Notes under the pieces: generated by a model
Databases searched by the model: none
Told to the model about the DNA's origin: nothing
Seen by the model: the letters and a program-made list of their open reading frames with translations, nothing else
Part shown: positions 40,424-56,776 of the stretch, in pieces
Position numbering within the stretch: the first letter of the stretch is position 1
Layout of the letters: each line of letters begins with the position of its first letter
Assembly: GCA_018674495.1 (NCBI GenBank)
Contig: JABHAA010000043.1
Span: 21,615 to 85,614 of the forward strand
Source of the DNA: Rhodospirillaceae bacterium
Lineage (GTDB): Bacteria; Pseudomonadota; Alphaproteobacteria; Rhodospirillales; UBA2165
Reading direction: 5' to 3'
Length of the DNA stretch: 64,000 bases
Translations under genes and position numbers: made by a program

Positions 40424-42181
40424 TTACGCTTCGGAGACAGTATCGAAAGCCGTCGAATGCTCTCCCGGCGGCGGCGGCGCGATGGCGTCCCGGCCCGGCA
40501 CTGGGCGCAGTTCGGCCCGGCAAGTATCACCGGCCTTCGACACCACATAATTGCCGAGGAAGTTGGCATCGTCGCGCTCGGGATAATCCATGCGGAAATG
40601 CCCGCCCCGTGTTTCCTTGCGGGCAAGGGCCGCCGTGCCCAGCATGCGCGCCACTTCAATGAGATTGCGGGTCTCGTAAGTTCGGCGCAGGCAATCCCAG
40701 CGTTGGCGTTTGGTTTTGCCTGAATTATCGACATCGTTGAATGCGCCTTCGGCGGCGGCCAATTCGTTAAGACCGGAGCTCAGGCGTTCCTCCGACCGCA
40801 CCTGACCGAGGGAAGAAACCACAAGATCCTGGACGTTCTGGCGCCAATCGCTTGCCGAGGGACCGGTGCCGGTCCTGGATGCTCTGTCGGCGAGATCCGC
40901 CAGGCCGTCTTGCCAATTGCCGCTTTCGGGATCGGGCGCCTCGCGGGTTTTCGCCTCCTGCGCCGCCGCGATGCCTGAGCGCAGACCGAACACATAACTG
41001 TCGATAAGGGCCAGCCCGCCGAGCCGGTTGGCGCCGTGAATGCCGCCCGCCGCCTCGCCGCCGGCATAGAGCCCCTCGATAGTCGAGCGGCCCCATTCAT
41101 CGATGCGCAAGCCGCCGAGATAGGTGTGCGGCGCCGCGCCGACCTCGAGGAATTCTTTGCTCAGATCGATATTGTTCTTGGCCATGGTAGCGATAATGGA
41201 TTTGCCCGGACCCTGATTGACCGCATCGAAGACATGACGGATATCGATGTTGATATTGCCGCCTGGCGTGCCTCGGCCTTCGAATATTTCCATCGCCATG
41301 GCGCGGGTGTTCATGGCCCGTGACGTTAATTCCATGCGTTCGGGGTCGTACTTTTCCATGAACCGCGCGCCGAGGCCGTTGAGCAGATGCCCGCCGGCAG
41401 TGAGCAATCCGGTCGAATAGCAGGGATAGCCGGCAAGCCTTTCCGGCGCTGCGGTAAGAACCTGATAGTCGATAAACTCCATATCGATCAGCTCGGCGCC
41501 AGCCCGGTAAGCCATGGCGTAGCCGTCGCCGGTAACGATGGGCGGCGAATCATTAAGGGTATGGAGCTGCGGCGCGCCGCCGGTGGCGATGACCGTCGAT
41601 CTGGCGTGAACCACCACGGGCGTTCCTTCCCGGTAGAGGAACCCCCAGGCGCCGACCACCCTATCGCCGTCTTTAAGCAGATCGACGAACATGATGTGGA
41701 TCATCGGCTCGATGTCCCAGCTTTTGGTTTTGCCCGACAGCGCCGCCATGAGCGGCTTGCCCATCAGCCGGTTGCAATGAACCATGCGCGGATAGCGGTG
41801 CGGAAAACCGCCGGGCACTTGATCGAAACGGCCATCTTCGGTCTTGACCAGGCCCAGCCCCCATTCATCCAACTCCGCCGAGCGGTCGATGGATTCGGTG
41901 CTGACGATGTCGATCAGCCGCTCATTGCAAAGCCCTTCGCCGCCGGCCTGGATGTCTTCGAAAAACAGATCGGGATTGTCCGCCGGATCGGAATGGCCGA
42001 GCGCCAGGGAATGGCCGCCGCGCGCCATCGACGAGGAGCCCGACGCATAGGTGCTCTTGGTTGCGATCATCGGCCTTACACCGGAGCGCATCGCACCGAC
42101 CACAGCCAGCATGCCGGCAACGCCGGAGCCGATGATAAGCATGTCTGTCTGGATGCGGCGAATGTCTTCGGGCGGGTTCAT
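40424..42181 (-). CDS. FAD-dependent oxidoreductase of the succinate dehydrogenase / fumarate reductase / L-aspartate oxidase flavoprotein family
   Basis: I moved the start to the ATG at 42181. Motifs are DMLIIGSGVAGMLA, ATGG, GLYAGGEAAGGIHGANRLGG and TRGGHFRMDYPERDD. The listed 977-aa ORF is an antisense extension into the amidohydrolase gene. Confidence 0.85.
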   Translation of the reverse strand: MNPPEDIRRIQTDMLIIGSGVAGMLAVVGAMRSGVRPMIATKSTYASGSSSMARGGHSLALGHSDPADNPDLFFEDIQAGGEGLCNERLIDIVSTESIDRSAELDEWGLGLVKTEDGRFDQVPGGFPHRYPRMVHCNRLMGKPLMAALSGKTKSWDIEPMIHIMFVDLLKDGDRVVGAWGFLYREGTPVVVHARSTVIATGGAPQLHTLNDSPPIVTGDGYAMAYRAGAELIDMEFIDYQVLTAAPERLAGYPCYSTGLLTAGGHLLNGLGARFMEKYDPERMELTSRAMNTRAMAMEIFEGRGTPGGNINIDIRHVFDAVNQGPGKSIIATMAKNNIDLSKEFLEVGAAPHTYLGGLRIDEWGRSTIEGLYAGGEAAGGIHGANRLGGLALIDSYVFGLRSGIAAAQEAKTREAPDPESGNWQDGLADLADRASRTGTGPSASDWRQNVQDLVVSSLGQVRSEERLSSGLNELAAAEGAFNDVDNSGKTKRQRWDCLRRTYETRNLIEVARMLGTAALARKETRGGHFRMDYPERDDANFLGNYVVSKAGDTCRAELRPVPGRDAIAPPPPGEHSTAFDTVSEA

Positions 42182-42322
42182 GATTAAGAACGCTTTCCGT
42201 TGTGATGGGTTACGCGGCCCTGATGATAGCCTTAAGAGCCTCTCCGGCGAAAGGCGATTAGATGGCGGTTGAATTGACGGGGCGTAGCGGGCAAGATTTT
42301 CGCTTAACCGGGAGTTCAAACC

Positions 42323-43771
42323 ATGACCACGCAAACCAAAGACAAAGCCGTCGGCGCCGATGTGCGCGCTCGCCTCGACCATCCGATCATCGATGGCGAC
42401 AGCCACACCCAGGAGACCGCCTTTGGCATGGAGGATTTCCTGAAACCCGTGGCCGGCTCGGAGATCGCGGCCCTTTGGTCCAAATTCCGATCCGTCCATA
42501 CGGTGCAGCCCTTGCGCCTGACATTTTGGAATGTGCCGTCCGGTCCGGCCAGCATTGATCGGGCCATGTCCATGCTGCCCAGGCTGCGCAAGGCGCGGCT
42601 GGAAGAGGCTGGGCTCGATTACTGCGTCATCTACACCACCATGGGCCTCGCACTGGTCGGCCACCGCAACGAAGAATTCCGGCGCGCCTGCTGCCGGGCG
42701 ATGAACGTCATGAACGCCGATATGTATATGGCCGCCGACGTCGCAGACCGCATGACCCCGGCCGCCGTGATCCCGATGAATTCGCCCGCCGAAGCCATCG
42801 AGGAATTGGAATATTGCGTCACCGAGCTTGGCTACAAGACAATCATGATCCCATCCGAAGTACGCACGCCCGTGAAAGAGGTCGCCGATCAGGCGCCGGA
42901 GCTGGCCGCCTATACCACCCACACCCATTCCTTCACCCTGGACGCGCTTTATGATTACGATCCCTTCTGGCAGCGCTGCGCCGATCTGAAAGTTTCCATC
43001 GGCTGCCATTCCAGCCCGAGGGGCGGCGGCGGATTGCGCGGCTCGCCCAGCAATTATGTGTTCAACCATCTGGGCAGCTTTGCGTCGGGCGCCGAATTCC
43101 TGTGCCGCTCGTTGTTCTTGGGCGGCGTGACGCGGCGCTTCCCCACCTTGCGCTTTGCCTTCCTGGAAGGCGGCGTTGCCTGGGCGGCCGATCTTTATGC
43201 CTCCATTGTCGAGGCGTGGGAAAAGCGCAATATGGATACGCTGATGGAGTATTTGAATCCGCACAATCTCGACATGGATCTGATGGTCGAAATGTTCGAA
43301 AAATACGGCAACGACTATTTGACGCCGGAGCGAATGCGCGGCTACCCGGAAACCCACAATTCCCGGCTCGACGAGAACCCGGACAATTACGATGATTTCC
43401 GCGCCTGCGAGATCAAACTAAAAACCGACATCCGCGAATTGTTCGTGCCCAACTTCTATTTCGGCTGCGAGGCCGACGACCGGCTCAACGCCATTGCCTT
43501 TGATGCCAAACTCAATCATATGGACGCCCGCCTGAAAGCCACTTTCGGCTCCGACATCGGCCATTGGGATGTGCTGGATTCAAGGAGCGTGGTGAACGAA
43601 GCCTACGCGCTTGTCGAACAAGGGCTGATGAGCGAAGACGATTTCAGGGACTTCACCTTCACCAACAATGTGACCCTGCACGCTGGCATCAATCCGGACT
43701 TCTTCAAAGGCACCGCCATCGAAGCCGAAGCCGATGCCGCCATGGCACGCGTGAACGCCGCCGCCGAGTAA
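42323..43771 (+). CDS. Amidohydrolase-2 (metal-dependent TIM-barrel hydrolase/decarboxylase) family protein
   Basis: 482 aa with HPIIDGDSHTQE near the N-terminus and FGSDIGHWD near the C-terminus. Confidence 0.75.
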   Translation: MTTQTKDKAVGADVRARLDHPIIDGDSHTQETAFGMEDFLKPVAGSEIAALWSKFRSVHTVQPLRLTFWNVPSGPASIDRAMSMLPRLRKARLEEAGLDYCVIYTTMGLALVGHRNEEFRRACCRAMNVMNADMYMAADVADRMTPAAVIPMNSPAEAIEELEYCVTELGYKTIMIPSEVRTPVKEVADQAPELAAYTTHTHSFTLDALYDYDPFWQRCADLKVSIGCHSSPRGGGGLRGSPSNYVFNHLGSFASGAEFLCRSLFLGGVTRRFPTLRFAFLEGGVAWAADLYASIVEAWEKRNMDTLMEYLNPHNLDMDLMVEMFEKYGNDYLTPERMRGYPETHNSRLDENPDNYDDFRACEIKLKTDIRELFVPNFYFGCEADDRLNAIAFDAKLNHMDARLKATFGSDIGHWDVLDSRSVVNEAYALVEQGLMSEDDFRDFTFTNNVTLHAGINPDFFKGTAIEAEADAAMARVNAAAE

Positions 43772-43791
43772 GGGATCGCTTTACGGCAACG

Positions 43792-45399
43792 CTAATTCGC
43801 GGCGTCCGCCAGAATTATATCAGCGGCCTTTTCGGCAATCATAGTGACCGGCGCGTGGGTGTTGCCGGACGTGATGACCGGCATGATCGATGCATCGGCG
43901 ATGCGCAATCCACCGATTCCATGCACGGCCAAACGATCGTTCACCACCGCCATCGCATCGTCGCCCATTTTCGCGGTGCCAACGGGATGAAAAATGGTAG
44001 TCGCAATGTCGCCGGCCAATTTGGCCAATTCCGCATCGGAGGTGAAATCAGCGCCCGGCTTGAATTCCACCGGCGCGTATCTGGCCATGGCGTTCGTGGC
44101 CATCAGACGGCGCGCATGGCGGATGCTGTCGGCAGCCACTTTGCGGTCATTATCGGTGGACAAGTAATTGGGCTTTATAGCCGGCGCCTGGTTGGCATCG
44201 TTTGACGTGATGTGACAGGTGCCGCGGCTTTCCGGGCGCAGATTACAGACCGAAACGGTGATCGCCGGAAATGTATGCAGCGGTTCGCCAAAGGCATCCA
44301 AAGACAAGGGCTGTACATGATATTCGATATTCGGCGTCTCGAACTCAGGCGCCGATTTGGTGAACAGGCCTAGCTGGCTGGGTGCCATCACCATCGGCCC
44401 GGAACGGCGCATAAAATAATCGGCGGCGATACCAAGCTTGCCCCAAAGGCTCGCCGACATTTCGTTCAGGGTCTTGGCGCCGGAGATTTTAAAAATCGTC
44501 CGTATTTGTAAATGGTCCTGCAGGTTTTCACCGACACCCTTCAATTCATGCACCACCGGAATATTATGCTCGGCCAAAATTTCGCCCGGCCCGATCCCCG
44601 ACAATTGCAGGATTTGCGCCGAACCGATGGAGCCGGCGGCAAGGATCACCTCTTGATTGACGAAGGCTTTGCTCAGTTTGCCGCGCTGGCGAATTTCGAC
44701 GCCGGTAACCTGGCGGCCATCGAAGCAAAGCCGTTCCACCTGGGCCTGGGTGATGATTTGCAGATTGCCCCGGTTTTTGACCGGATCGAGGAACGCTTTT
44801 CTGGAATTCCAGCGCACGCCCTTTTTCTGATTGACCGGAAAATAGCCAACGCCTTCGTTGTTGCCTTGGTTGAAATCATCGGTCGGCGCAACGCCAATCT
44901 CGCCGGCCGCTTCCGCCACACTGTCCAATATGGGCCACGAAAGGCGCTGTTCCTCGACCAGCAATTCGCCGTCCTTTCCGTGGAATTCGCTTCCCTCGCC
45001 ATAATGATGTTCGGACTTGGTGAAATAGGGCAGCACGTCGTCCCAGCTCCAACCCACATTGCCCATTTGGCGCCACTGGTCATAGTCCCTGGCCTGGCCG
45101 CGCATATAGATCATACCGTTGATCGACGAGCAGCCGCCGAGCACCTTGCCGCGCGGATAATTTAACGCCCGGCCATTGAGCCCCGGTTCAGGTTCGGTCC
45201 GGTAGCACCAGTCGGTCTTCGGGTTGCCCATGCAATATAAGTAACCCACCGGTACATGCACCCAGAACCGGTTGTCGCTGCCACCGGCTTCGATCAGCAG
45301 CACTTTGGTTTTGGCGTCGCTGCTCAGCCGGTTGGCCAGAACGCAGCCGCCGGAGCCGGCGCCGATGATGATGTAATCGAAAGTGCCCCTATCGGTCAT
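43792..45399 (-). CDS. GMC-family FAD oxidoreductase (choline/alcohol dehydrogenase-like)
   Basis: 535 aa with FDYIIIGAGSGGCVLANRLS, GKVLGGCSSINGM and HPVGTAKMG. Confidence 0.9.
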   Translation of the reverse strand: MTDRGTFDYIIIGAGSGGCVLANRLSSDAKTKVLLIEAGGSDNRFWVHVPVGYLYCMGNPKTDWCYRTEPEPGLNGRALNYPRGKVLGGCSSINGMIYMRGQARDYDQWRQMGNVGWSWDDVLPYFTKSEHHYGEGSEFHGKDGELLVEEQRLSWPILDSVAEAAGEIGVAPTDDFNQGNNEGVGYFPVNQKKGVRWNSRKAFLDPVKNRGNLQIITQAQVERLCFDGRQVTGVEIRQRGKLSKAFVNQEVILAAGSIGSAQILQLSGIGPGEILAEHNIPVVHELKGVGENLQDHLQIRTIFKISGAKTLNEMSASLWGKLGIAADYFMRRSGPMVMAPSQLGLFTKSAPEFETPNIEYHVQPLSLDAFGEPLHTFPAITVSVCNLRPESRGTCHITSNDANQAPAIKPNYLSTDNDRKVAADSIRHARRLMATNAMARYAPVEFKPGADFTSDAELAKLAGDIATTIFHPVGTAKMGDDAMAVVNDRLAVHGIGGLRIADASIMPVITSGNTHAPVTMIAEKAADIILADAAN

Positions 45400-45405
45400 A
45401 CCACC

Positions 45406-46560
45406 TCAAGGCCATAGCTCGGACGAGGCCAGGGCCGCGCCTTCGGCCAAGGTTTCCAGCTTTGCCCACATAACGGTGGGGTGCACCCGCTGATAACCTT
45501 CGGCCTGGGCAAAGCCGCAATCGGTTCCGGCGATCACGTTTTCTCGGCCCACCAGGCCGGCAAAGCGAACGATGCGATCGGCCACCAGACGCGGATGCTC
45601 GACGGTGATGGTGTGGTGCGAGACAACGCCGGGGATCAGGATCTTGCCGTCCGGCAGCTTGGTATCCTGCCACACCCGCCATTCATGTTCGTGACGCGCA
45701 TTGGCCGCCTCGATGGAATAGGCGCCGGCATTGACCCGTAAGATCAGATCAATGATCGCCTCCAACGGCGCATCGGCGGTGTGCGGAATGTGCCAGCTTC
45801 CGAAACAGACATGGTAGCGGACCCGGTCTTCGGGAATGCCCTTAAGGGCGTGGTTGAGGGCTTCAACGCGCAGCTCCGCCCATTCCCGATATCGTTCCGG
45901 GCTCTGCTGAACCAGATGGTCGTACATGTTGGCGAGCACGGCATCGTCCACCTGCACCAGCAATCCGGCGGCGTGGATGGCCGCATATTCCTTACCCAGC
46001 GCCTCGGCGATGGCGTAGATATAATCATGCTCGTTCTGGTAATGCTCATCGACGCCGTCATAGGCGGTACTGGCCGGCGCGACGGCGGTGATGAAGGCTT
46101 CGGCCACATCGTTCCCGGCAAGCGCCGCTTTCAGGTTTTCGCAATCGCGCTCAATGGCGCCGGCGCCGGTGTAGGTGATGGCACCGATGCAGGCCTCGGT
46201 CGGGCGCCCTTCGACGGCGCTCGGCATCTCCTGCAATATGGCTTCGCGGAAGCGGTCCATGTCGCGGCCCATCCATTCCACGGGGCGCAATTGGTCCGGG
46301 CGGCGCTCCCAACCGGTCATACGGTCCAGCACATAGGCGGCCCAGCTCGACTTGCCGTATTCGCCGTCATTGACGATGTCGATGCCGGCTTCGGTCTGTT
46401 TTTTCACCACCTCGGCGGTGGCGCTTTGCAGCATCGCCGCATAGCTTGCCTGCGATTGCGCATCGCCGGTTCGCGCCGCTTCGCCGGCGGCCAGCAATTC
46501 GGCGGGCCGGATCAGGCTGCCCACATGGGTTGTCAAAATACGCTCGGTGCTTCGTTTCAT
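45406..46560 (-). CDS. Cobalamin-independent methionine synthase (MetE C-terminal domain)-like methyltransferase family protein
   Basis: I moved the start to the ATG at 46560 (MKRSTERILTTHVGSLIRP...). It is a single-domain protein of about 384 aa with HVCFGSW and a GTDCGF-type C-terminal motif. Confidence 0.7.
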   Translation of the reverse strand: MKRSTERILTTHVGSLIRPAELLAAGEAARTGDAQSQASYAAMLQSATAEVVKKQTEAGIDIVNDGEYGKSSWAAYVLDRMTGWERRPDQLRPVEWMGRDMDRFREAILQEMPSAVEGRPTEACIGAITYTGAGAIERDCENLKAALAGNDVAEAFITAVAPASTAYDGVDEHYQNEHDYIYAIAEALGKEYAAIHAAGLLVQVDDAVLANMYDHLVQQSPERYREWAELRVEALNHALKGIPEDRVRYHVCFGSWHIPHTADAPLEAIIDLILRVNAGAYSIEAANARHEHEWRVWQDTKLPDGKILIPGVVSHHTITVEHPRLVADRIVRFAGLVGRENVIAGTDCGFAQAEGYQRVHPTVMWAKLETLAEGAALASSELWP

Positions 46561-46693
46561 GGCTGTGATCTCCTTTGTTCCCTTTGCGCCGAACCTAGCG
46601 CAATCGATCCGGCTGGCCAAACAGAGCGCCGCCGGTTGCTTGGCTGGGCCTCCTGGTCCATGGTCAGGCGATACCGAATCCCGGAGCCGCACA

Positions 46694-47524
46694 ATGCAGA
46701 TTTCACCGCTTGATCCCTTCGGCGCCGAAATCACCGGCATCGATCTGGCTGGCGACGTCGATATCACAGCGATTCAGGATGCCTGGTACGCCCATCAGGT
46801 TCTGGTGTTCCGGGATCAATCGCTCAGCCAGGACGATCAGCTTCGCTTTACCAGCCGGCTCGGGCCCATGGGCATATCGCGCAACACGATCACCGACGCA
46901 GGGCCGAGCGGCGAAGCGACCCAGCCTGGCATCATGTGGGTCACAAATCTTCGCCGCGGCGACGGCAGCGCCTACGGCCAGCCGCACGGGGGCGAGATGT
47001 GGTTCCATTCCGACATGTGTTATGCGGAAAAGCCCTATACGGCGACCATCCTTTATGCCATCGAGTTGCCGGCCTTGGGCGGCGCCACCCGCTTTGCCGA
47101 TATGTACGGCGCCTATGAGGCCCTGCCCGGCGAGACAAAGCAAAGGATCGAAGGCAAAAGCGTCGTCCAGGTGCACGAATATCACCGGCTGGAACGCCCG
47201 TCGCCTGAGGCTGAGCGCCCCGATGCCTTGCAGTTCGCGCACCCGGCGGTGATCGTGCATCCCGAAACCGGGCGCAAAGCCTTGTTCGTCAACCGGCTGA
47301 TGTCGGCAAGCGTGGTCGGCATGGAGGCGGACGAAAGCGAAGCTCTGCTGGAAGAATTGTTCGACCGCTCCGAGGACCCGGCCAAGATATTGAGCCACAA
47401 TTGGCGCCCCGGCGATCTGGTGATGTGGGACAACCGCTGCACCATTCATGGCCGCGCCGATTTCCCCGAAACCGCACGCCGCATTTTGCGCCGCACCACG
47501 GTGATCGGCGAGCGCCCGTCGTAG
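46694..47524 (+). CDS. TauD/TfdA-family Fe(II)/2-oxoglutarate dioxygenase (paralogue 3 of 3)
   Basis: I moved the start to the ATG at 46694 (MQISPLDPFGAEITGIDLAG...). Motifs are MWFHSDMCY, GGATRFADM and VMWDNRCTIHGRA. Confidence 0.85.
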   Translation: MQISPLDPFGAEITGIDLAGDVDITAIQDAWYAHQVLVFRDQSLSQDDQLRFTSRLGPMGISRNTITDAGPSGEATQPGIMWVTNLRRGDGSAYGQPHGGEMWFHSDMCYAEKPYTATILYAIELPALGGATRFADMYGAYEALPGETKQRIEGKSVVQVHEYHRLERPSPEAERPDALQFAHPAVIVHPETGRKALFVNRLMSASVVGMEADESEALLEELFDRSEDPAKILSHNWRPGDLVMWDNRCTIHGRADFPETARRILRRTTVIGERPS

Positions 47525-47625
47525 TCAAGCGCCCCTTGTGCGCCCCCGAAAGCGATAGTTTGCTTGACGTATTCGCTGCATTAATGATGTCATCGCCGTT
47601 AACAGGGCAATCCATATAAGGGGGC

Positions 47626-48702
47626 ATGGCGATGGGTGAGATACTTGGTATCGGAACGACGCATTATCCAGGCCTGACCGGCACTGACGAGGGATTAAGC
47701 TCGGTCTGGCAGCGTATTATCAATGCCCCGCTGATCGGTGAAAAATGGAAAGACAAGGCCAACTGGCCCGCCGGCATGATCGACGAGATCGGCGACGATA
47801 TGGGCCTGGCCTCGGCCGCCGCCTACCGGGAGCGAATGTGGGACAACTTTCGCAAGCAGCGCAAAATGATCGACGAGTTTGATCCCGACTTTATCGTTAT
47901 CATCGCCGATGATCAGTATGAGAACTTCAAAGAAGACATCATCCCGCCGTTTTGCGTCTATGGCCTCGACGATGATTTCGAGCAAGAAGTCTGGGGCCAC
48001 GGCTTTGCCGCCACCAAGGACAATTACTGGGGCGAGCCCCACGATCTGAAGATGGACTTCCATGGCCACCGGGAGGGCGCCAAATATATCACCGCCGGAT
48101 TGCTGACGCGCGGCGTCGCCATGCCGTATGCCTACCGGTTGCTGCATTCGCCGATATTGGCGCACGGCTTCAATTACTCGGTGCTCTATCTCGATCTCGA
48201 CCGCCGGGGCTTCCCCTATCCGATCATTCCGCTGCATGTAAACTGTTATGGCTCATCGGTGATCACCGCCGGCGGCGCCTTCCAACACCTGTTCGAGAAG
48301 CCCGAGCAAAACGGCCTGCCCGATCCGCCCGGCCCTAACCCTGCCCTTTGTTACGAAGTCGGCGCCAATTTGGCCGAGGCTTTGGCGGAGAGCCCCTATC
48401 GTTCGGTGATCATGGCATCGTCGAGCTGGTCCCATTGTTTCTTGTCCACCAATACCGGCTACGTGATCCCGGATTTCGAAAGTGACCGCATGATGCTGGA
48501 AGCGCTGACCGACGGCGACTATGAAACCTGGCGCGGGCGCACAATGGAAGAGGTCGAGGCCGCCGGCCACCATGAATTGCTGAACTGGCATGTGCTGGCC
48601 GGCGCTATGGACAAGCTGGACCGCAAGCCGATGATCGCCGACTATGTAGAAACCTTCATCTTCCAGTCCGACAAATGCTTCGCCGCCTTCCCGCCCAATT
48701 GA
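47626..48702 (+). CDS. Class III extradiol ring-cleavage dioxygenase (LigB)-family protein
   Basis: 358 aa with ILGIGTTHYPGL and FDPDFIVIIADDQYENFKEDIIPPFCVY, which fit the LigB-family pattern. The assignment is by pattern recall only. Confidence 0.6.
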   Translation: MAMGEILGIGTTHYPGLTGTDEGLSSVWQRIINAPLIGEKWKDKANWPAGMIDEIGDDMGLASAAAYRERMWDNFRKQRKMIDEFDPDFIVIIADDQYENFKEDIIPPFCVYGLDDDFEQEVWGHGFAATKDNYWGEPHDLKMDFHGHREGAKYITAGLLTRGVAMPYAYRLLHSPILAHGFNYSVLYLDLDRRGFPYPIIPLHVNCYGSSVITAGGAFQHLFEKPEQNGLPDPPGPNPALCYEVGANLAEALAESPYRSVIMASSSWSHCFLSTNTGYVIPDFESDRMMLEALTDGDYETWRGRTMEEVEAAGHHELLNWHVLAGAMDKLDRKPMIADYVETFIFQSDKCFAAFPPN

Positions 48703-48789
48703 GCACACATAATTATGACTTTGCTGGCGGGCAAATCGGTTATAACGTTGTCGCAAGTTGGATGGCGTTAAACAGGGAATGAAAATCTT

Positions 48790-49200
48790 TTGGAAATCAT
48801 CGGCGATTCACTGAACGAACTTCCGTGGTTCCTGGCTTATTTGGCAACCGCGGTCGCGCTGACTTTGGTCTTTTGCGTCATCTACGCCTGGGTGACGCCC
48901 CATGCCGAGATCACGCTAATCCGGGAAAACAATCTGGCCGCGTCGTTGGCTTTCGCCGGCAGCCTGATTGGCTTTTGCATGCCGCTCGCCAGCGCCATCG
49001 CCAATTCCGCCGCCTTGGTGGATTTCGCCGTTTGGGGGGTGATCGCCATAATCGTGCAGATCGTAATTTTTTATCTGGTCCGCCTGCCCATACCCAAATT
49101 ATCGGAGCGCATCGAGAACGGCGAGGTGGCCAGCGGTCTGTGGCTTGGCGCCGCATCCCTGGCCGGTGGCATGCTCAACGCCGCCTCGATGACGAATTGA
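48790..49200 (+). CDS. DUF350 (YjfL-like) small membrane protein
   Basis: 136 aa with four hydrophobic segments and a TTG start. It is followed by DUF1190-like and GspS-like genes, as in the E. coli yjfLMC order. Confidence 0.7.
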   Translation: MEIIGDSLNELPWFLAYLATAVALTLVFCVIYAWVTPHAEITLIRENNLAASLAFAGSLIGFCMPLASAIANSAALVDFAVWGVIAIIVQIVIFYLVRLPIPKLSERIENGEVASGLWLGAASLAGGMLNAASMTN

Positions 49201-49253
49201 TCAAACACGGCCTGCCCTTGATTTAAGAGGCGCGCCGAATTTAAGGAAACATA

Positions 49254-49796
49254 ATGCCATATTTGAAATCAAAAGCCGGGACTTTGGTGATGGGCGTAAG
49301 CCTGTTCGCCCTCGCCGCCTGCGAGGAGCCCAAGGTTGAGGCCGCCATATTCGAAAACATTCAGCAATGCATTTCCAATGGCGATGCGAACCCGGAACAA
49401 TGCGAGCGAAACTTCCGTGAAGCCAAAAGCCAGCACGCCGCCGTCGCACCGAAATATGCAAACGAGGCCGATTGCCAGGCTGACTTCGGCGCCGGCAAAT
49501 GCGAAAAAGCACCTTATAGAACGGCGGGCGGCGGCTCGGTCTTCATGCCCTTGATGGCCGGCTACATGATGGGCTCCATGCTCTCAGGCAGGAGTTTCAT
49601 GTCGCCGCAGCCCTTGTACCGTTCGGCCTCCAGCCCCGGCACCTTCCGCACCGCCGACAATCGCAGCGCCGGCACCAGAACCGGGCGCACCCAGGTGGCG
49701 CGCACAGCCACGTCGCGCCCATCTGTCAAAACGGCAACCCGGTCGCGCGGCGGCTTCGGCTCATCCGGGCGGCGGTTCGGATCGGGCGCCACGTAA
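49254..49796 (+). CDS. DUF1190 (YjfM-like) lipoprotein
   Basis: It has a lipobox LFALAAC, Cys-containing segments (QQCISNGDANPEQCERNF, ADCQADFGAGKCE) and a Gly/Ser/Arg-rich tail. Confidence 0.7.
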   Translation: MPYLKSKAGTLVMGVSLFALAACEEPKVEAAIFENIQQCISNGDANPEQCERNFREAKSQHAAVAPKYANEADCQADFGAGKCEKAPYRTAGGGSVFMPLMAGYMMGSMLSGRSFMSPQPLYRSASSPGTFRTADNRSAGTRTGRTQVARTATSRPSVKTATRSRGGFGSSGRRFGSGAT

Positions 49797-49815
49797 TTCC
49801 GAAGCCTTAGAAATC

Positions 49816-50976
49816 ATGCAGCGCATTTCGGTTAGCGAACGGTCCGGCCTGGCCGCCGCAGCAGCTGAGCACGGTTTCGAATATGCCGCCAGCGAAGGCG
49901 TCACCGGCTGGGACGAAAGCGGCTACTACCAATTCACTATGGCCCAAATCCAAGATAATTTGGCGGCCCCGGCGGAAGAGCTGGAAGGCTTTTGCTTTGA
50001 ATTGGTCGAGCGCGCGGTCAATGACCAGGCGATCTTGGAGCGCTTAGGCATTGCCGAGCCGTTCTGGGACTATCTGGCCCAAAGCTGGCGGGATGGCGAT
50101 AAAAACCTCACTGGCAGGATGGATCTATCTTACGACGGCACCGGACCGGCGAAGCTTTTGGAATACAATGCCGACACGCCGACGGCGCTGTATGAGACGG
50201 CGGTGTTCCAATGGGAATGGCTGGAACAGGCCGCCGAAGAAGGATTGATCCCGGAAAATTGCGATCAGTTCAACGATGTCCATGAGGCCATTGTTCAGAG
50301 CTTTGCCGCGATGAGTATCGAAGGGATAGCCCACTTCGCCTGCAACACGGATATCGAAGACGATAAGGGCACCCTCGAATATCTGGAAGAGTGTGCCAAG
50401 GAGGCCGGGCTCAAGACGCACCTCTTGGCCATGAACGATATCGGCCTCGATGACTGGGGGAAATTCACCGACACCGAAGAGGATGTGATCACCACCTTGG
50501 TCAAATTGTATCCCTGGGAATGGATCATGGACGAGGAGTTTGGATTAAAAGTACCGGCCAGCCGCGTTCGCTTTATCGAGCCGCCATGGAAAGCCATCCT
50601 TTCCAACAAGGGCATGCTGGCACTGCTCTGGGAAATGTTCGAGGGGCACCCCAATCTTTTGCCGACCTTTTTCGAAGGCGATGCGGGCGCGGATGCACTG
50701 GCCGGCACCTATGTGCGCAAACCCTTGCTGGGGCGGCAAGGAGCGAATATTCAGATGTACCGGGACGGTGCATTGCAAGGCTCAAGCGATGGCCCCTATG
50801 GTGATGGCGGCCAAATCGTTCAGGGATGCGCACCCCTGCCCGATTGCGGCGGCAGATATCCGCTGCTCGGCCTTTGGCTGATCGCCAGCAAGGCCGCCGG
50901 ATTGTGTATCCGTGAAGGCCAGTCCTTGATCACCGGCCCCGATGCCCGAACGGTCCCGCACGTAATTCTGGATTGA
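49816..50976 (+). CDS. Glutathionylspermidine synthase-like ATP-grasp amide ligase (YjfC/YgiC family)
   Basis: 386 aa with GRMDLSYDGTGPAKLLEYNADTPTALYE, YPWEWI, PPWKAILSNKGMLALLWE and RKPLLGRQGANI. Confidence 0.85.
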   Translation: MQRISVSERSGLAAAAAEHGFEYAASEGVTGWDESGYYQFTMAQIQDNLAAPAEELEGFCFELVERAVNDQAILERLGIAEPFWDYLAQSWRDGDKNLTGRMDLSYDGTGPAKLLEYNADTPTALYETAVFQWEWLEQAAEEGLIPENCDQFNDVHEAIVQSFAAMSIEGIAHFACNTDIEDDKGTLEYLEECAKEAGLKTHLLAMNDIGLDDWGKFTDTEEDVITTLVKLYPWEWIMDEEFGLKVPASRVRFIEPPWKAILSNKGMLALLWEMFEGHPNLLPTFFEGDAGADALAGTYVRKPLLGRQGANIQMYRDGALQGSSDGPYGDGGQIVQGCAPLPDCGGRYPLLGLWLIASKAAGLCIREGQSLITGPDARTVPHVILD

Positions 50977-51059
50977 TGAAGCCGTTAAGTCCTTTTCCCA
51001 GGCTTGCCGACGGCATTCCCCAAGGCCATAATCACTTTCAATAAAAGGGAGGAACCGAT

Positions 51060-51980
51060 TTGCTCGATCCGGTCGAACTATTTCCGGAAGTGCCCAACAT
51101 CTATGCGTTTCCAAGCGTCCATGCCGACATGGTTTTCGACAAGTCCCGCGTCGCGGCCTATCGGGATGCGATCAATGAAACCGTCAAACCAGGGGATGTG
51201 GTTGCCGACCTCGGATCCGGAACCGGGCTCTTAAGCTTTCTCTGCCTCCAAGCTGGCGCGGCTCGTGTTCATGCCATAGAACGCAGCGACGTGATCGAAT
51301 GGTCGAAAGAACTGGCCGATAAAAACGGCTTTTCAGACCGCATGGAATTTCACAAGAAGGACGCCCGCGACGAAAGTCTGGAGCTCGGCGAAAAAGTCGA
51401 TGTCATCGTCAGCGAATTGATGGGGCATGTGGCCTTCGAAGAGGGTATGGCGGAAACCATTTGTGTCGCAAAGGAGCGATTTCTGAAACCAGGCGGTGCG
51501 ACTATCCCACAGACGGTGACCTTGCGGGCGGCACTTGTTCATGCGGATGAGCTTTATCGTAATTATATCGATTCATGGAACGTGGTCGAAGGCATCGATT
51601 ATTCGGCTATGCGGGAAAAAGCGGTTCAAAGCGCCTATGTTGTCGACATTCATGCCGACCAAATTTTATCCGACAGTCAGATTATTTCGGTCGAGGCGTT
51701 CTTGTCCAACCCACGAGATACCTACGACACATTCTCATTTACATCCTGGCGAACTGGCTCGATCAACGGCCTAGCGTTTTGGTTTGATGCCGACCTTACA
51801 GACCGAATTCGCTTGTCCAGCGGACCTAGGACCTACACCCATTGGCAGCAATGTTTTATACCATTTGAAAAACACATTAAAGTTTCAGCCAAACATAATA
51901 TTCAGGTTTTGATTGAAATGAAGTATCGCAAATCTTTTGATCAAAAATTCGAATTCAAAATTTCGAAAATTGATGCTTAA
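51060..51980 (+). CDS. Protein arginine N-methyltransferase (PRMT)-like class I SAM methyltransferase
   Basis: 306 aa with the PRMT signature set: HADMVFDKSRVAAYRDAI, motif I VADLGSGTGLLS, AIERS, double-E loop SELMGHVAFEEGM and THW loop YTHWQQCFIPF. It has a TTG start. Confidence 0.8.
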   Translation: MLDPVELFPEVPNIYAFPSVHADMVFDKSRVAAYRDAINETVKPGDVVADLGSGTGLLSFLCLQAGAARVHAIERSDVIEWSKELADKNGFSDRMEFHKKDARDESLELGEKVDVIVSELMGHVAFEEGMAETICVAKERFLKPGGATIPQTVTLRAALVHADELYRNYIDSWNVVEGIDYSAMREKAVQSAYVVDIHADQILSDSQIISVEAFLSNPRDTYDTFSFTSWRTGSINGLAFWFDADLTDRIRLSSGPRTYTHWQQCFIPFEKHIKVSAKHNIQVLIEMKYRKSFDQKFEFKISKIDA

Positions 51981-52015: not shown

Positions 52016-53722
52016 ATGAACCAAGAACCAGACATACCAATAAAAGAGGCCGAAGAGACTAAGGATCGTCGGACTCCTTCGGAGCCTGGACCCAACGATA
52101 CGGTTATAATGTTTGTGGATATTGCTGGCGCATCAGAAGTATCAAATCATATGTCCGTGGAAAAATATTACAAAAAATTTCTTAAAAAATTTAGCCAGCT
52201 ATTTATTCAAACGTGCAAGGAATTTTATAAGAATATACCTAAATCGATAATCGTCGATGAGGAGACGAAATGGTCTGCAAGAGGTGACGAAGGGATACTA
52301 TTTTTTTTCCCGGTCTATAAAGGTGAATGGAGCGATCAAGAGTATTATGAATCAAAAAACAGAGGACTCGCGACGTGCGTCGATACAGCGATCCACATAG
52401 GACTTGCCTTAAAGCGCAAGTGGCTTCTTTCAGAGGAAAATTCAGCTCGAATTGCCCAAGGAATAATGCCTATCGATTTGGGTGTCGGAATTCACGTTGG
52501 CAAAACTTGGATAACGATTGAAAACGGCGAATATCAACCTGAAGGCTATGCGATTAATCTTGGTAAGCGGGTGGAAAGCCATTCTCGGAACGGACGCTAT
52601 TCACGAATATTTGTCAGTGAGGCTGCGCATGCCGTGCTCGAATATCTGGCTGACGAAAGAACCTATACTTTCGACGAGGCAACATCGGTAGACGCAAAAG
52701 GATTTTCTCGAGAGGTTCGCGCGTTTGAAGTACAACATCATTTCCTCCCGACCGATTGGACAGACTATGTTTTATCTTTGGTAGATACGACACAACCATC
52801 TGACGGTATAGAACAAGATCAGCGCGACAAACGGACAAGACTTGCAAATCTATATACACCCGTTCCGACACAAAACGTCACGGAGGATGTCCAGTTTTCG
52901 ACAGATAAAGAGTTCGATAGGTATTTGAGCCTCACAAAGGAGGCGCGAGCGATAAACCCAACAAATATTTGGCTTTCTGAACAACTGATCAAGGCTGATA
53001 TGGTTTCAGACCTATACCATTTGGCCAAGATCAATGGAAAAGTGCGTGATCGATCAGATATTGAAAAGGACCTAGAAACTAAGTCAGAAATGGGAACCAA
53101 ATATCAAACTGCATTTGAAGTTGCTTCTTATCTTTCGCAGAGCGACTTGAGAGATGCTGGTGTTTTGATGATTCAGGGTCTTATAGAAGGTGAACGTCTC
53201 GATTTCGATGGAGAGCAACGTAGGTACAGGCGCGCACAAAATTTTTCAGATCAAATTGCTCGCTTGGCATGGTACAGGGGTTATTCATGCGCTCAGCAAG
53301 CCTACAACATATTTGATTGGGAAAAGGTCAATAAAGAGACCCGTGACATTACTAATAATTTCGACAGCCGCCAATTGGACTACTGCATTAAATTCGTGAG
53401 AGATGATATTGAGTTAATTGCCGACAAGGAGGCCCTCAAAATAAATCTTTGCGAATGGATAAAAAACGCCAGAGACTTTCTGACATCATCTGTGGAATTG
53501 TCCCCATTTTCGGCTTGGCCAAAGCAAGCATTGGGAATCGAACTTATTATGTGGACCAGCGACCAAACGGCAGAGGGGATGGAAGAGATAGAATATGGCA
53601 AAGAGCTAATTAAAGCTGCTTGTGAAATCTTGCCCGATGTAAAGCTGTTTCTAACCGAGCATAAATACATCGAAAAAATATCGGATGAGGAATGGGTTCA
53701 AGATATATTGTCCAATGAATAA
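52016..53722 (+). CDS. Divergent class III nucleotidyl cyclase-like domain fused to an approximately 320-aa helical domain of unknown family
   Basis: 568 aa. Segments that align to the cyclase homology domain are VIMFVDIAGASEVS, ARGDEGILFFF, GVGIHVGKTWI, GYAINLGKRVESHS, RIFVSEAAHAVL and KGFSREVRAFEV. This is the lowest-G+C gene of the window. Confidence 0.6.
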   Translation: MNQEPDIPIKEAEETKDRRTPSEPGPNDTVIMFVDIAGASEVSNHMSVEKYYKKFLKKFSQLFIQTCKEFYKNIPKSIIVDEETKWSARGDEGILFFFPVYKGEWSDQEYYESKNRGLATCVDTAIHIGLALKRKWLLSEENSARIAQGIMPIDLGVGIHVGKTWITIENGEYQPEGYAINLGKRVESHSRNGRYSRIFVSEAAHAVLEYLADERTYTFDEATSVDAKGFSREVRAFEVQHHFLPTDWTDYVLSLVDTTQPSDGIEQDQRDKRTRLANLYTPVPTQNVTEDVQFSTDKEFDRYLSLTKEARAINPTNIWLSEQLIKADMVSDLYHLAKINGKVRDRSDIEKDLETKSEMGTKYQTAFEVASYLSQSDLRDAGVLMIQGLIEGERLDFDGEQRRYRRAQNFSDQIARLAWYRGYSCAQQAYNIFDWEKVNKETRDITNNFDSRQLDYCIKFVRDDIELIADKEALKINLCEWIKNARDFLTSSVELSPFSAWPKQALGIELIMWTSDQTAEGMEEIEYGKELIKAACEILPDVKLFLTEHKYIEKISDEEWVQDILSNE

Positions 53723-54869
53723 ACTTCTTAGTCCAAACTTCATCTATGACGAACGCCAGCTAGAGCATTCTAATGCTCGCGTACTCGCCTTAGTATCTGA
53801 AAGCGGCTGCAAGGTCTTGTATTCCCCGAAGGCATGTACCGTTCCAGGCGTTTTGAAAAACCTCGCAAATCATATGGACGGATTCTCTTGCTCGTCATTA
53901 TTCGAAGTGCATCTGGTTCAGGAAGTGGTCAAGCATAGCGGTGCCATCCATTTGACTACGCCGGGCATTTTGGCATATCAAATCGATGAGATTATTGAGG
54001 CCTGTGACACCGTCGTTCTGAACAGCCTTTCCCAATGGCTTCGGTTTCGAGAAGAACTTAAAGGTACCGTCGATCTCGGTCTTCGCATCAATCCCCAATT
54101 ATCATTTGCCGAGGACCCCAGGTACGACCCTTGCCGAGAATATTCCAAATTGGGCGTACCGCTGGACCAGTTGGCAGACCAGTTCAGTAATTCGCCACAA
54201 ACATTTGTCGGACTAAACGGTCTCCATTTCCACAACAACTGTGATTCCACCGACCCGGCCGCGCTGGCGGCGACGGTCGATAAAATCATTGCCGCAATCC
54301 CAAGCCTCCTAAATCAAGTTAGTTGGATCAATCTTGGCGGTGGATATTTGCTCGATGAATTCGAGGAGCCTGATATATTTACAGGCACGGTCCAGCGCCT
54401 AACCACCGAATACGACCTAGATGTCATCATCGAGCCGGGCGCAGCATTGGTCCGAACCGCCGGCTCCATCGTTTCCTCCGTCATCGATTTGTTCGAAAGC
54501 GACGGCATTACCGTGGCGGTACTCGATACCACCGTGAACCATATGCCCGAAGTTCTTGAATACGAGTTTGTCCCGGATGTCCTGGGGCACGTGGACGGCG
54601 GTAAATATTCCTACCTGTTGGCCGGGTGTACCTGTCTCGCCGGAGACCAGTTTGGTATTTCATCCTTCGACGCGCCCATTGAAATCGGATCGACAATTAC
54701 CTTCCCCAACACGGGCGCCTATACCATCTCCCGCGCCAATACGTTTAATGGCGTGAATTTGCCATCGATTTACCGCCGGGATATGTCGGGCAATCTCATC
54801 CTTGAAAAAGAACATACGTTCGAAGAATTCGCGGCGCGGGCGGGGGTGGTTTCTAATGTTCGTGTCTGA
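53715..54869 (+). CDS. Carboxynorspermidine/carboxyspermidine decarboxylase (NspC/CANSDC) family PLP enzyme
   Basis: I moved the start to the ATG at 53715, which overlaps the upstream stop by 8 nt (ATGAATAA). Motifs are VLYSPKAC, VVLNSLSQWLRF, GLRINPQ, YDPCREYSKLG, GLHFHNNC, INLGGGY, IEPGAAL, LDTTVNHMPEVLEY, GCTCLAGD and NTFNGVNLPSIY. Confidence 0.85.
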   Translation: MNKLLSPNFIYDERQLEHSNARVLALVSESGCKVLYSPKACTVPGVLKNLANHMDGFSCSSLFEVHLVQEVVKHSGAIHLTTPGILAYQIDEIIEACDTVVLNSLSQWLRFREELKGTVDLGLRINPQLSFAEDPRYDPCREYSKLGVPLDQLADQFSNSPQTFVGLNGLHFHNNCDSTDPAALAATVDKIIAAIPSLLNQVSWINLGGGYLLDEFEEPDIFTGTVQRLTTEYDLDVIIEPGAALVRTAGSIVSSVIDLFESDGITVAVLDTTVNHMPEVLEYEFVPDVLGHVDGGKYSYLLAGCTCLAGDQFGISSFDAPIEIGSTITFPNTGAYTISRANTFNGVNLPSIYRRDMSGNLILEKEHTFEEFAARAGVVSNVRV

Positions 54870-56226
54870 ACAGAGTTTTTCTCTGCCCGCCCAGCAAGGC
54901 CAGAGCGATTTGATCGATTATTTCCGCCAGGCGTGCCGCTTTCGTTTGGACAAGGGGAGCGTTCCAATCCGTTTCGCGGTTACCGCCTCGGATGCCCAAG
55001 AATATAAGTGCGAAATTGGCGCGGCTGAAGACGTAAATTCGGCGACGGCTTTGAACGAAAATTCGATCTTTGATTTTCGCCGCCGCGAGACAGAAGACAC
55101 CAGCTCGTTCAACGCGGTCTTTCTGGTGCCAACGGGCATCGGCGCTGAAATCGGCGGGCATGCCGGCGATGCGACACCGGTGGCGCGTATGCTGGCGCAA
55201 TCCTGCGATGAATTGATTTTGCACCCCAACGCGGTAAATGCTTCCGATATAAATGAAGCACCGGAGAATTCCCTTTATCTGGAAGGCAGCGTCATCACCC
55301 GCCTGATGATGGGCAGCATTGGTCTGCAACGGGTGCGGTCGAACAGATTGCTCGTGGTCATTGATGGCGATCACGAAGATATATTTGTGAATGCCACGCT
55401 AAATTCGGTGGATGCCGCCAGGGCCTGTTATGGGGTTCATATCGTCGATGTGCTGAAAATGATTCCCCCCGTTCGCTTGGCCGGTGCGTTCTCGGAAGCG
55501 GGCCGCGCGGCTGGCACTGTCGAAAATTTAGACTACTTATTCGAAGTACTGGCGGAGCGGCGCCAGGACTATGATGCCGTCGCGATTGCATCCATCATTG
55601 ATATTCCAGATGGATCGGTGCTTGAGTATTTTGCCAGCGATGGCACGGAGGTAAATCCCTGGGGCGGCGTGGAAGCCATGCTGACCCATGCCATATCGGC
55701 GGAATATGATGTGCCGTCCGCACATGCGCCCATGATGGAAGGCCAAGATATTGCCAATGCCGATCTCGGTCAGGTTGATCCGCGCATGGCCGCCGAAGCT
55801 GTGTCCATGACATTCCTGAATTGTGTTATGAAGGGGCTTCAGAAAAGCCCTAAAATTATTTCGGATGCCAGCCTGTTTAATCGCCCGGAAATATTCACGG
55901 CTTCGAATGTTTCTTGTCTGGTGATCCCCGAGGGTTGCCTGGGTCTGCCAACCTTGGCCGCGTTGGAACAGGGAATTCCTGTCATTGCCGTAAAGGAAAA
56001 CCGCAACCTGATGCGCAACGAATTGGCCGCGCTACCATGGAAACCAGGCCAGTATTTTGAGGCCGAGAGCTATCTGGAGGCCTCCGGCGTTATAAACGCG
56101 CTGAAGGCCGGCATCGAGATAGGAACCCTAAGACGGCCACTCGGCCAAACAAAACCACAAATTGTGAGTAGAGAGCGTCAGGAAACGATCCCTCGCCCCG
56201 GCGACGGGAAAACCAATATCGGGTAG
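54856..56226 (+). CDS. DUF3326-like protein of unknown function
   Basis: I moved the start to the ATG at 54856, which overlaps the NspC-like gene by 14 nt. The motif VFLVPTGIGAEIGGHAGDATPVARMLA...LILHPNAVNAS matches my recollection of the DUF3326 family. There are no TM segments. Confidence 0.55.
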   Translation: MFVSEQSFSLPAQQGQSDLIDYFRQACRFRLDKGSVPIRFAVTASDAQEYKCEIGAAEDVNSATALNENSIFDFRRRETEDTSSFNAVFLVPTGIGAEIGGHAGDATPVARMLAQSCDELILHPNAVNASDINEAPENSLYLEGSVITRLMMGSIGLQRVRSNRLLVVIDGDHEDIFVNATLNSVDAARACYGVHIVDVLKMIPPVRLAGAFSEAGRAAGTVENLDYLFEVLAERRQDYDAVAIASIIDIPDGSVLEYFASDGTEVNPWGGVEAMLTHAISAEYDVPSAHAPMMEGQDIANADLGQVDPRMAAEAVSMTFLNCVMKGLQKSPKIISDASLFNRPEIFTASNVSCLVIPEGCLGLPTLAALEQGIPVIAVKENRNLMRNELAALPWKPGQYFEAESYLEASGVINALKAGIEIGTLRRPLGQTKPQIVSRERQETIPRPGDGKTNIG

Positions 56227-56269: not shown

Positions 56270-56320
56270 GCGAATATCGCCCAGCCCGACTACACTGGTG
56301 GCCAGGCAATGGAGGGGGAT

Positions 56321-56776
56321 ATGCGCCGCGCAATCAAAACCATCGGCATCTTGTTTTTGGGCGTCATTCTTTCGGGCTGCACCGTTGGGATGCCCTACAA
56401 CAGAATCAAGGCGGACCTGCCGAAACTGTCCGCCGGCAAAAGCCGGGTCTTTGTCTATCGGACATTCATTGTGCCCGAGCTTATGCATCCACGGGTGGTC
56501 CTGATTGACGGCAAGCCTTTCGGCGATGCCTTGACCGGCACTGCAAGTTACCGGGACGTGGCGCCGGGCGCCCATGAGTTCTCCATCGCCGACCGTCATT
56601 CCAAATTGAAGGTGCAATTGCAGCCTGGCAAGGTGACCTTTTTGCGCATCACCATTGTTACCGCCAAGGACAGCGGCATCGATACGATCATCAAAGTTAT
56701 TCCGAGCAATAAAGCCGAAGCGGATTTGCATGGCATCAATGTGATCGAAGCCAAGGTCCGCGATCTGGTGAAATAA
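56321..56776 (+). CDS. DUF2846-like lipoprotein
   Basis: I moved the start to the ATG at 56321, which has a GGAGGGGG ribosome-binding site. It has a lipobox FLGVILSGC, then RVFVYR and VLIDGKPFG. Confidence 0.7.
   Translation: MRRAIKTIGILFLGVILSGCTVGMPYNRIKADLPKLSAGKSRVFVYRTFIVPELMHPRVVLIDGKPFGDALTGTASYRDVAPGAHEFSIADRHSKLKVQLQPGKVTFLRITIVTAKDSGIDTIIKVIPSNKAEADLHGINVIEAKVRDLVK

Follow-up and report, generated by a model that had tools for sequence, protein, structure and literature searches.

A gene pair of an alphaproteobacterial genome, encoding an NspC-like pyridoxal 5′-phosphate (PLP) decarboxylase and a protein of the DUF3326 family, is most likely one copy of a widespread, mobile and obligate unit of two enzymes for making an amine of the polyamine type. 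Both genes are found within a 64,000-nucleotide (nt) stretch of Rhodospirillaceae bacterium DNA (assembly GCA_018674495.1, contig JABHAA010000043.1, positions 21,615 to 85,614 of the forward strand), which is referred to here as the window. Its elements are as follows.

53685..54869, + strand: open reading frame (ORF) of the NspC-like PLP decarboxylase, 394 amino acids (aa) from ATG 53685, with TGA at 54867-54869
54856..56226, + strand: long-form DUF3326 protein, a homologue of PavB of the pavettamine pathway, 456 aa from ATG 54856 (PF11805, E 3.3e-92)
54856..54869, + strand: 14-nt overlap of the NspC-like stop and the DUF3326 start, read from the sequence

Linkage between DUF3326 and decarboxylase genes was surveyed in the best 80 long-form DUF3326 loci of at least 585 genome hits, with one genome per species and more than 15 phyla represented. 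All ORFs of these 80 loci were scored with purpose-built hidden Markov models (HMMs). A same-strand decarboxylase gene adjoins the long-form DUF3326 gene in 79 of the 80 genomes, and the sole locus with neither decarboxylase type begins 456 nt from a contig end. The partner is of two kinds, which never occur together (0/80). In 52 genomes it is a ∼135-aa protein resembling S-adenosylmethionine decarboxylase (AdoMetDC; PF02675, E 2.6e-15), always encoded immediately upstream on the same strand. In 27 it is NspC-like, encoded upstream in 25 and just downstream in two. Together with the natural fusions described below, these counts bear out the expectation, raised in an earlier note on this DNA, that DUF3326 genes would be recurrently linked to decarboxylases.

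The two kinds of partner are interchangeable. The AdoMetDC-like protein is highly diverged, scoring 22-27 bits on the model for true S-adenosylmethionine (SAM) decarboxylases against a cut-off of 75.7, although the self-processing and catalytic motifs (FILTS..IHT..FSCK) retain their Ser, His and Cys. On a tree of 81 DUF3326 proteins from a quick maximum-likelihood IQ-TREE run, the partner type changes at least seven times, or at least twice if well-supported branches alone are counted. The exact placement of the window DUF3326 on this tree is unsure because of its long branch (0.92). Every kind of upstream module found in the 80 loci occurs with both partner types.

The junction of the two genes is also conserved. 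The 14-nt overlap, which the earlier note had pointed out, is exact in the sequence, and we take it, on that evidence, as translational coupling. An overlap of that length is estimated at 12 of the 25 other loci that have an NspC-like gene upstream of DUF3326, and the same 14-nt ATG...TGA arrangement was seen directly at the pavA/pavB junction (locus L086). A G-rich, Shine-Dalgarno-like GGGGG run lies at 54842-54846, 9 nt 5′ of the DUF3326 ATG. A longer DUF3326 reading could start from TTG 54802, yet every homologue aligns from ATG 54856. For the NspC-like gene, the alternative ATG at 53715 is the more likely start because homologues align from about residue 11-16. A scan for promoters and terminators gave no signal above shuffled expectation.

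Searching longer proteins with the NspC-like sequence revealed three kinds of natural fusion. One joins a Rieske domain and a ring-hydroxylase domain (PF00355 and PF00848) to the NspC-like domain in proteins of 1,110-1,126 aa from Paraburkholderia and Caballeronia. This kind is PavA; its decarboxylase domain and the window protein share 45-48% identity (390-398 bits). The second kind joins a major facilitator superfamily (MFS) transporter to the NspC-like domain. At one such locus (L143:1059-6228), 1 nt separates the gene for an 843-aa MFS::NspC-like fusion from a downstream DUF3326 gene, and an M20 peptidase gene comes next. The third kind (P0136, P0138 and P0139) joins the two members of the pair themselves: P0136 carries a decarboxylase at residues 15-355 (43% identical to that of the window) and a complete long-form DUF3326 at residues 382-811 (50%).

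Genetic evidence comes from pavettamine biosynthesis. Locus L086 encodes, in order, PavA, a 454-aa DUF3326 protein (PavB) and a Cupin_8/JmjC protein (PavC), and alignment of the window DUF3326 with the PavB homologue gives 50% identity over 441 aa, N-terminal extension included. Pavettamine requires all three pav genes (10.64898/2026.06.12.731819, a bioRxiv preprint of June 2026). In the same study, N-(5-aminopentyl)pentane-1,5-diamine, a C5-N-C5 triamine on the way to pavettamine, was formed only with pavA plus pavB, whereas cadaverine was detected in all strains, pavA-less ones included (10.64898/2026.06.12.731819). This argues that PavA does more than provide the diamine. The preprint authors found the pavABC homologues all together only in Burkholderia sensu lato (10.64898/2026.06.12.731819). 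The two-gene core is far wider in distribution than that three-gene survey found.

The window decarboxylase has both domains of the fold-III (alanine-racemase-fold) PLP decarboxylases, the catalytic lysine and the C-terminal Cys...Asp motif. PF02784 (50.3 bits) and PF00278 (27.2 bits) both exceed their cut-offs, and no other domains are present. The closest solved relative is the carboxynorspermidine decarboxylase (CANSDC) 9eaf (E 1e-69), and the protein aligns over its full length with CANSDC structures 9eaf and 3n29. The top score against solved canonical enzymes is 238 bits, compared with 390-398 bits for the PavA decarboxylase domain. K49, the GGGY loop at 218-221, E250 and C317...D321 do not vary across the subfamily alignment (A2), and K49 lines up with a lysine of 9eaf and 3n29. 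Model scores are 271 bits for nspC, 97 for lysA and 38 for DokD. However, the score on TIGR01047, the nspC equivalog model, is 270.8 bits against a cut-off of 409, and the DUF3326-linked relatives P0136 and P0130 likewise fall short of it (264 and 294 bits). Judged by these profiles, the window decarboxylase is NspC-like but divergent and not an NspC equivalog.

Two regions of the DUF3326 protein are as follows.

54856..55113, + strand: N-terminal extension, residues 1-86, not covered by the Pfam model and confined to the long form
55126..55185, + strand: glycine-rich loop VPTGIGAEIGGHAGDATPVA, residues 91-110, between the first core strand and the next helix

The PF11805 match spans residues 87-425 and profile positions 2-336 of 337, scoring 309.5 bits against a cut-off of 25 (E 3.3e-92). 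The earlier note's assignment to DUF3326 is thus secured far above the gathering score, and its estimate of about 90 extra N-terminal residues is close to the ∼86 aa measured here from the start of the match at residue 87. The conserved glycine-rich block that it described also proved real: VPTGIGAEIGGHAGDATPVA is near-invariant across 25 relatives (alignment A1), with T93, G94, G96, G100, G101, H102, G104 and D105 invariant. The extension is conserved in the same 25 relatives, with E5, P37, R39, C52, E53, F72 and R77 invariant. It is also found in the PavB homologue and in fusion P0136, and is missing from most viral-contig copies. Searched alone against 1.84 billion representatives, the N-terminal 85 aa gave 105 weak matches and no clear second architecture; these matches were mostly short proteins (70-160 aa), apparently fragments from the ends of contigs. 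With its ∼85-aa extension, invariant GGH.GD loop and adjoining upstream decarboxylase gene, the window protein belongs to the long-form, PavB-like subfamily. Long-form DUF3326 proteins (∼450 aa) are abundant: one search returned more than 4,999 relatives, 53-60% identical across phyla that include Nitrospinota, Verrucomicrobiota, Planctomycetota, Acidobacteriota, Chloroflexota and Pseudomonadota.

The AlphaFold2 model of the window DUF3326 (predicted local distance difference test score, pLDDT, 80; predicted template modelling score, pTM, 0.82) has Rossmann-like alpha/beta domains, and the extension is predicted as a small beta-alpha-beta-beta domain. Low pLDDT at residues 93-103 suggests that the glycine-rich loop may be mobile. 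Similarity searches with the protein were uninformative beyond its own family. Foldseek of the model against the PDB gave no match at E ≤ 1e-3, phmmer against PDB sequences gave a chance-level match only (E 0.84), a feature search of the ESM Atlas gave no usable match, and a Pfam scan of the 25 A1 members at E ≤ 10 found nothing recurrent besides PF11805. The VIA wide structure search returned generic Rossmann, flavodoxin-like and GT-B-half matches only, with Z up to 10.3. Saccharopine dehydrogenase/reductase folds (5l76, Z 9.2; 1e5l, Z 9.1) are tied there with glycosyltransferase halves and lumazine synthase at Z 9-10. The LOG-fold chain 2iz5 appears in the same list at Z 8.4, among many generic matches. 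Kinship of the DUF3326 core with LOG/SLOG proteins (PF03641), considered because of a motif resemblance, gained no support when A1 was compared with 16 LOG proteins by hhalign (probability 0.3%). Nor do we claim that the GHAG loop corresponds to the phosphohistidine loop of succinyl-CoA synthetase, which it resembles, as only low-probability ATP-citrate-lyase rows were found in favour of this. A complex of the NspC-like and DUF3326 proteins predicted from alignments scored 0.00, which speaks neither for nor against binding.

The remaining polyamine genes of the host were sought in its genome, which is 95.7% complete. A canonical speD-speE pair is present on another contig. Because this separate route to spermidine exists, the window pair is probably an extra, dedicated specialised route. 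Besides a true lysA, the genome encodes another, lysA-like decarboxylase; no fold-I Lys/Orn/Arg decarboxylase, canonical nspC or other nspC homologue was found in it. No candidate for carboxy(nor)spermidine dehydrogenase was found at the locus or elsewhere in the genome. The lone saccharopine-dehydrogenase-family gene (PF03435 and PF16653) is on another contig, beside the gene for L-piperidine-6-carboxylate dehydrogenase, a lysine-catabolism gene. A further open frame of 843 aa contains a domain like that of spermidine synthase and may be the membrane-fused form known from the literature; the coordinates noted for it and the speD-speE pair together are G000:C130:38265-39310 and G000:C17:131636-132094.

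The surroundings of the pair in the window consist of two cassette genes and an upstream module resembling yjfLMC.

48790-49200, + strand: DUF350, yjfL-like, by Pfam
49254-49796, + strand: DUF1190, yjfM-like, by Pfam
49816-50976, + strand: glutathionylspermidine-synthase-like ATP-grasp, yjfC-like, by Pfam
51060..51980, + strand: protein arginine methyltransferase (PRMT)-like methyltransferase, cassette gene 1 (PRMT_C E 3e-17, Methyltransf_31; GC content at third codon positions, GC3, 0.53)
52016..53722, + strand: 568-aa cyclase-like protein (cyclase-tetratricopeptide repeat, cyclase-TPR), cassette gene 2 (weak Guanylate_cyc; GC 0.425, GC3 0.41)

The Guanylate_cyc match of the 568-aa protein scores 21.8 bits, just under the cut-off of 21.9. 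All four genes between 51060 and 56226 have GC3 of 0.41-0.60, versus 0.69-0.75 in the flanking genes, so the PRMT-like, cyclase-TPR, NspC-like and DUF3326 genes form a compositionally foreign four-gene cassette. The nearest relatives of the window DUF3326, P0011 (63% identical) and P0023 (61%), are encoded in the same four-gene arrangement with transposases on the flanks. There, the PRMT-like gene precedes the pair and the cyclase slot is filled by a 541-aa or 373-aa protein with no Pfam match. The PRMT-like protein of the window also matches the PADLOC model mad2 (E 7e-16). Downstream of the pair, a DUF2846 gene (56309-56776) has a native-like GC3 of 0.705 and is not conserved beside the pair elsewhere.

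In 24 of the 80 loci a yjfL-yjfM-yjfC-like trio immediately precedes the decarboxylase-DUF3326 pair, and some of these also include DUF2491, a K+ channel, DUF2170 and PspA. Such modules have been described as PspA-linked polyamine genes, in passages of a paper that mention AdoMet decarboxylase and polyamine oxidase linkages and not DUF3326 (PMC11237479). Window positions 41115-50981 match the DNA of a genome from the same genus (G001) at 85-91% identity, and the match stops where the yjfC-like gene ends. Beyond that point, G001 (L141, C73) carries an AdoMetDC-like gene and a DUF3326 gene whose protein is 54% identical to that of the window. In two further genomes of the genus, both the yjfC-like gene and DUF3326 are missing. 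Among 21 related genomes, DUF3326 occurs in seven and GSP_synth in eight, with both on one contig ∼1-4 kb apart in six. We read this as a natural swap experiment, in which the foreign cassette replaced, or landed at, the position of a resident pair. A same-site swap within one genus argues that both types of pair do the same job for the YjfC-like module.

Other loci place the pair in different company. Homologues of the Septu proteins PtuA and PtuB (PADLOC, E 1e-35 to 1e-61) are encoded directly upstream and co-directionally in ∼22 of the 80 loci. These span many phyla and include either decarboxylase type (for example, L014:4284-6452, L081:3822-5831 and L073:80-1985). In five Septu-plus-pair loci a gene resembling that of 4-HFC-P synthase (MfnB) stands just before PtuA (for example, L015:3700-4437). 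At 11 loci, a ∼400-aa protein with no Pfam, NCBIfam or PADLOC family is encoded directly upstream of the pair (for example, L006:5324-6544), and one metagenome-assembled genome (OZ245330.1) holds two blocks of the ∼400-aa protein, AdoMetDC-like and DUF3326 genes ∼370 kb apart (L067, L070) with identical DUF3326 proteins. MFS transporters are fused to, or adjoin, the pair at several loci. Of 31 IMG/VR contigs with a DUF3326 homologue (L088-L118), 29 also hold an AdoMetDC-like gene, mostly directly upstream (for example, L092:7530-9176). The DUF3326 copies on these contigs are mostly of the short form, which has no N-terminal extension. On L092 there are neighbours from phage families, such as a topoisomerase (E 1e-109) and a polymerase-exonuclease. 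DUF3326 gave no match among PHROG families, and tblastn with it against PLSDB plasmids and INPHARED phages gave none.

How the two enzymes might work together can be conjectured from these contexts. The account that we favour, with roughly even confidence, is that a carboxy-polyamine owes its C-N bond to DUF3326 and is then completed by the decarboxylase; we infer the order of steps, the substrates and any DUF3326 cofactor. In the first step, DUF3326 would make a new C-N bond between an amine, probably a diamine, and the side-chain end of an alpha-amino acid, or of an amino-acid-derived aldehyde or activated donor. The result would be a 'carboxy-polyamine' of the carboxy(nor)spermidine type. 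In the second step, the co-translated NspC-like PLP enzyme would strip the alpha-carboxyl and release a triamine, whose likely consumer is the adjacent YjfC-like ATP-grasp ligase. DUF3326 would thus be a non-homologous stand-in for carboxy(nor)spermidine dehydrogenase. This account is favoured because the decarboxylase subfamily is NspC-like along its whole length, because the Pav triamine needed PavA despite the presence of cadaverine, because no carboxy(nor)spermidine dehydrogenase candidate was found in the genome, and because the substrates of both partner families are 2-amino-4-(onium)butanoates. SAM and carboxyspermidine both belong to this class, so AdoMetDC-fold and NspC-fold enzymes could plausibly share a carboxy-intermediate. 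The proposal of the earlier note, that DUF3326 replaces the usual partner of NspC and supplies or processes its substrate, gains support from the linkage, the fusions, the missing dehydrogenase and the Pav genetics.

Several points weigh against this carboxy-polyamine account. No biochemical assay of any DUF3326 protein and no carboxyl-retaining intermediate has been reported. The mechanism rests on context because structure, sequence and profile searches give no DUF3326 cofactor: Foldseek found nothing at E ≤ 1e-3, the VIA matches at Z ∼10 are generic, and the glycine-rich loop does not conform to a classical dinucleotide motif. The Septu, phage-like and PRMT-like/cyclase contexts imply that the product may not be an ordinary housekeeping polyamine. 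The Pav authors leave open that PavA decarboxylates lysine first (10.64898/2026.06.12.731819), and AdoMetDC homologues have repeatedly turned into pyruvoyl ornithine or arginine decarboxylases (PMC9992855), which fits a decarboxylase-first order equally well.

Such a decarboxylase-first order, which we regard as the main rival, though clearly less probable, would have the NspC-like enzyme or, at other loci, the AdoMetDC-like enzyme convert a basic amino acid such as ornithine or lysine to a diamine. DUF3326 would then condense two diamines, or a diamine and another amine, into a symmetric triamine, using a bound nicotinamide cofactor in the manner of homospermidine synthase or deoxyhypusine synthase. 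The symmetric C5-N-C5 product of the Pav system, for which the authors suggest lysine decarboxylation by PavA (10.64898/2026.06.12.731819), and the Rossmann-like DUF3326 model agree with this order, as does the history of the AdoMetDC homologues cited above. Against it, every Pav strain contained cadaverine, and still both pavA and pavB were needed for the triamine. The NspC-like subfamily, moreover, fits CANSDCs over its full length and scores far higher on nspC than on lysA or DokD (271 versus 97 and 38 bits), and neither homospermidine synthase nor deoxyhypusine synthase is among the best fold matches of DUF3326, though this last point decides little. A SAM-based route, which we think improbable, would have DUF3326 move the 3-amino-3-carboxypropyl group of SAM to an amine for decarboxylation by the NspC-like enzyme; at AdoMetDC-like loci DUF3326 would transfer the aminopropyl group of decarboxylated SAM instead. 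This would account neatly for why either decarboxylase type serves, and the AdoMetDC fold of the alternative partner (PF02675, E 2.6e-15), with Ser, His and Cys kept, is in its favour. Nonetheless, that partner scores just 22-27 bits on the true SAM decarboxylase model (cut-off 75.7), and swaps of partner between close DUF3326 relatives would demand switching between SAM and decarboxylated SAM. Furthermore, the Pav product is made of C5 units and not of SAM-derived C3/C4 units, and no SAM-binding fold was recognised in the DUF3326 structure searches.

A different kind of explanation takes the pair out of free polyamine synthesis altogether: it would modify a macromolecule or nucleotide, or make a signal, in a phage-host conflict system. 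PtuA/PtuB directly upstream in ∼22 of the 80 genomes across many phyla, the AdoMetDC-like gene on 29 of the 31 IMG/VR contigs, the phage-family neighbours on L092, and the window cassette and its relatives, with their flanking transposases and cyclase-like gene, all lend it some weight. We nevertheless judge it unlikely: Pav homologues make free amines, the MFS fusions and linkages point to a small molecule, and auxiliary genes for ordinary polyamine enzymes are known from phages. That the two genes are neighbours by accident, the NspC-like enzyme working with an unlinked partner and DUF3326 having an unrelated role, is scarcely credible: the Pav genetics, the natural fusion proteins and the conservation of the 14-nt overlap all oppose it, as does the adjacency found in 79 of 80 genomes. 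A more speculative extension, for which we have limited confidence, is that the pair serves as a portable 'amine generator' for bacterial and phage conflict and envelope-stress systems, in which a dedicated polyamine or its conjugate would be the signal, cofactor or effector on which the outcome of infection or membrane stress depends. The systems in which it was seen are Septu nucleases, the PRMT-like and cyclase-TPR cassette, YjfC/PspA-type membrane modules and phage genomes. If this were true, DUF3326 would represent a new class of enzymes that form C-N bonds, one without any solved relative.

Pfam still lists DUF3326 as a family of unknown function. The earlier note's statement that the family has no assigned function holds in that sense, and needs amending in that the preprint genetics gives a foothold; among the papers found to mention DUF3326, that preprint alone gives a function (10.64898/2026.06.12.731819). 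We found no prior description of the general DUF3326-decarboxylase rule, of interchangeable PLP and pyruvoyl partners, of the natural fusions, of the same-site pair swap within one genus, or of the DUF3326 link with yjfLMC. An observation from the genetics of pavettamine in one genus, Burkholderia, is thus extended to a general rule, which probably defines a new, non-homologous polyamine route. This rule would fill annotation gaps left by 'orphan' NspC or SpeD homologues in many marine and soil genomes, while the links to yjfLMC, Septu and phage-like contigs suggest where the product is used.

The pair resembles several known systems in part. As in the CASDH/CANSDC (carboxy(nor)spermidine dehydrogenase/decarboxylase) pathway, an NspC-family PLP decarboxylase with fold III has a proposed C-N bond-forming enzyme as its partner, but in the window this is DUF3326 and not a saccharopine-dehydrogenase-family enzyme. 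The placement of the AdoMetDC-fold partner just upstream of DUF3326 in 52 of the 80 loci recalls that of speD relative to speE; DUF3326, however, is unrelated to aminopropyltransferases, and the AdoMetDC-like partner has diverged widely from true AdoMetDC. Septu on its own contains no metabolic genes, and PtuA and PtuB are not present in this window. In pavABC, the pavA/pavB gene order and the 14-nt overlap match those of the window pair. There the decarboxylase is part of a fusion, whereas the window decarboxylase is free-standing (394 aa) with no Rieske or ring-hydroxylating domain, and no JmjC PavC gene follows the window DUF3326, where DUF2846 (+ strand) and TauE (− strand) genes lie instead. 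The companions also differ, being a PRMT-like gene, a cyclase-like gene and a yjfLMC-like module, and the host is an environmental bacterium rather than a Burkholderia. Because the Rieske and JmjC oxygenases of pavABC are absent from the window, its product should be unhydroxylated and hence not pavettamine. Finally, the yjfIJKLMC/ygiBC-type modules of E. coli have the same order of DUF350, DUF1190 and ATP-grasp genes as the module that stands upstream of the cassette in the window.

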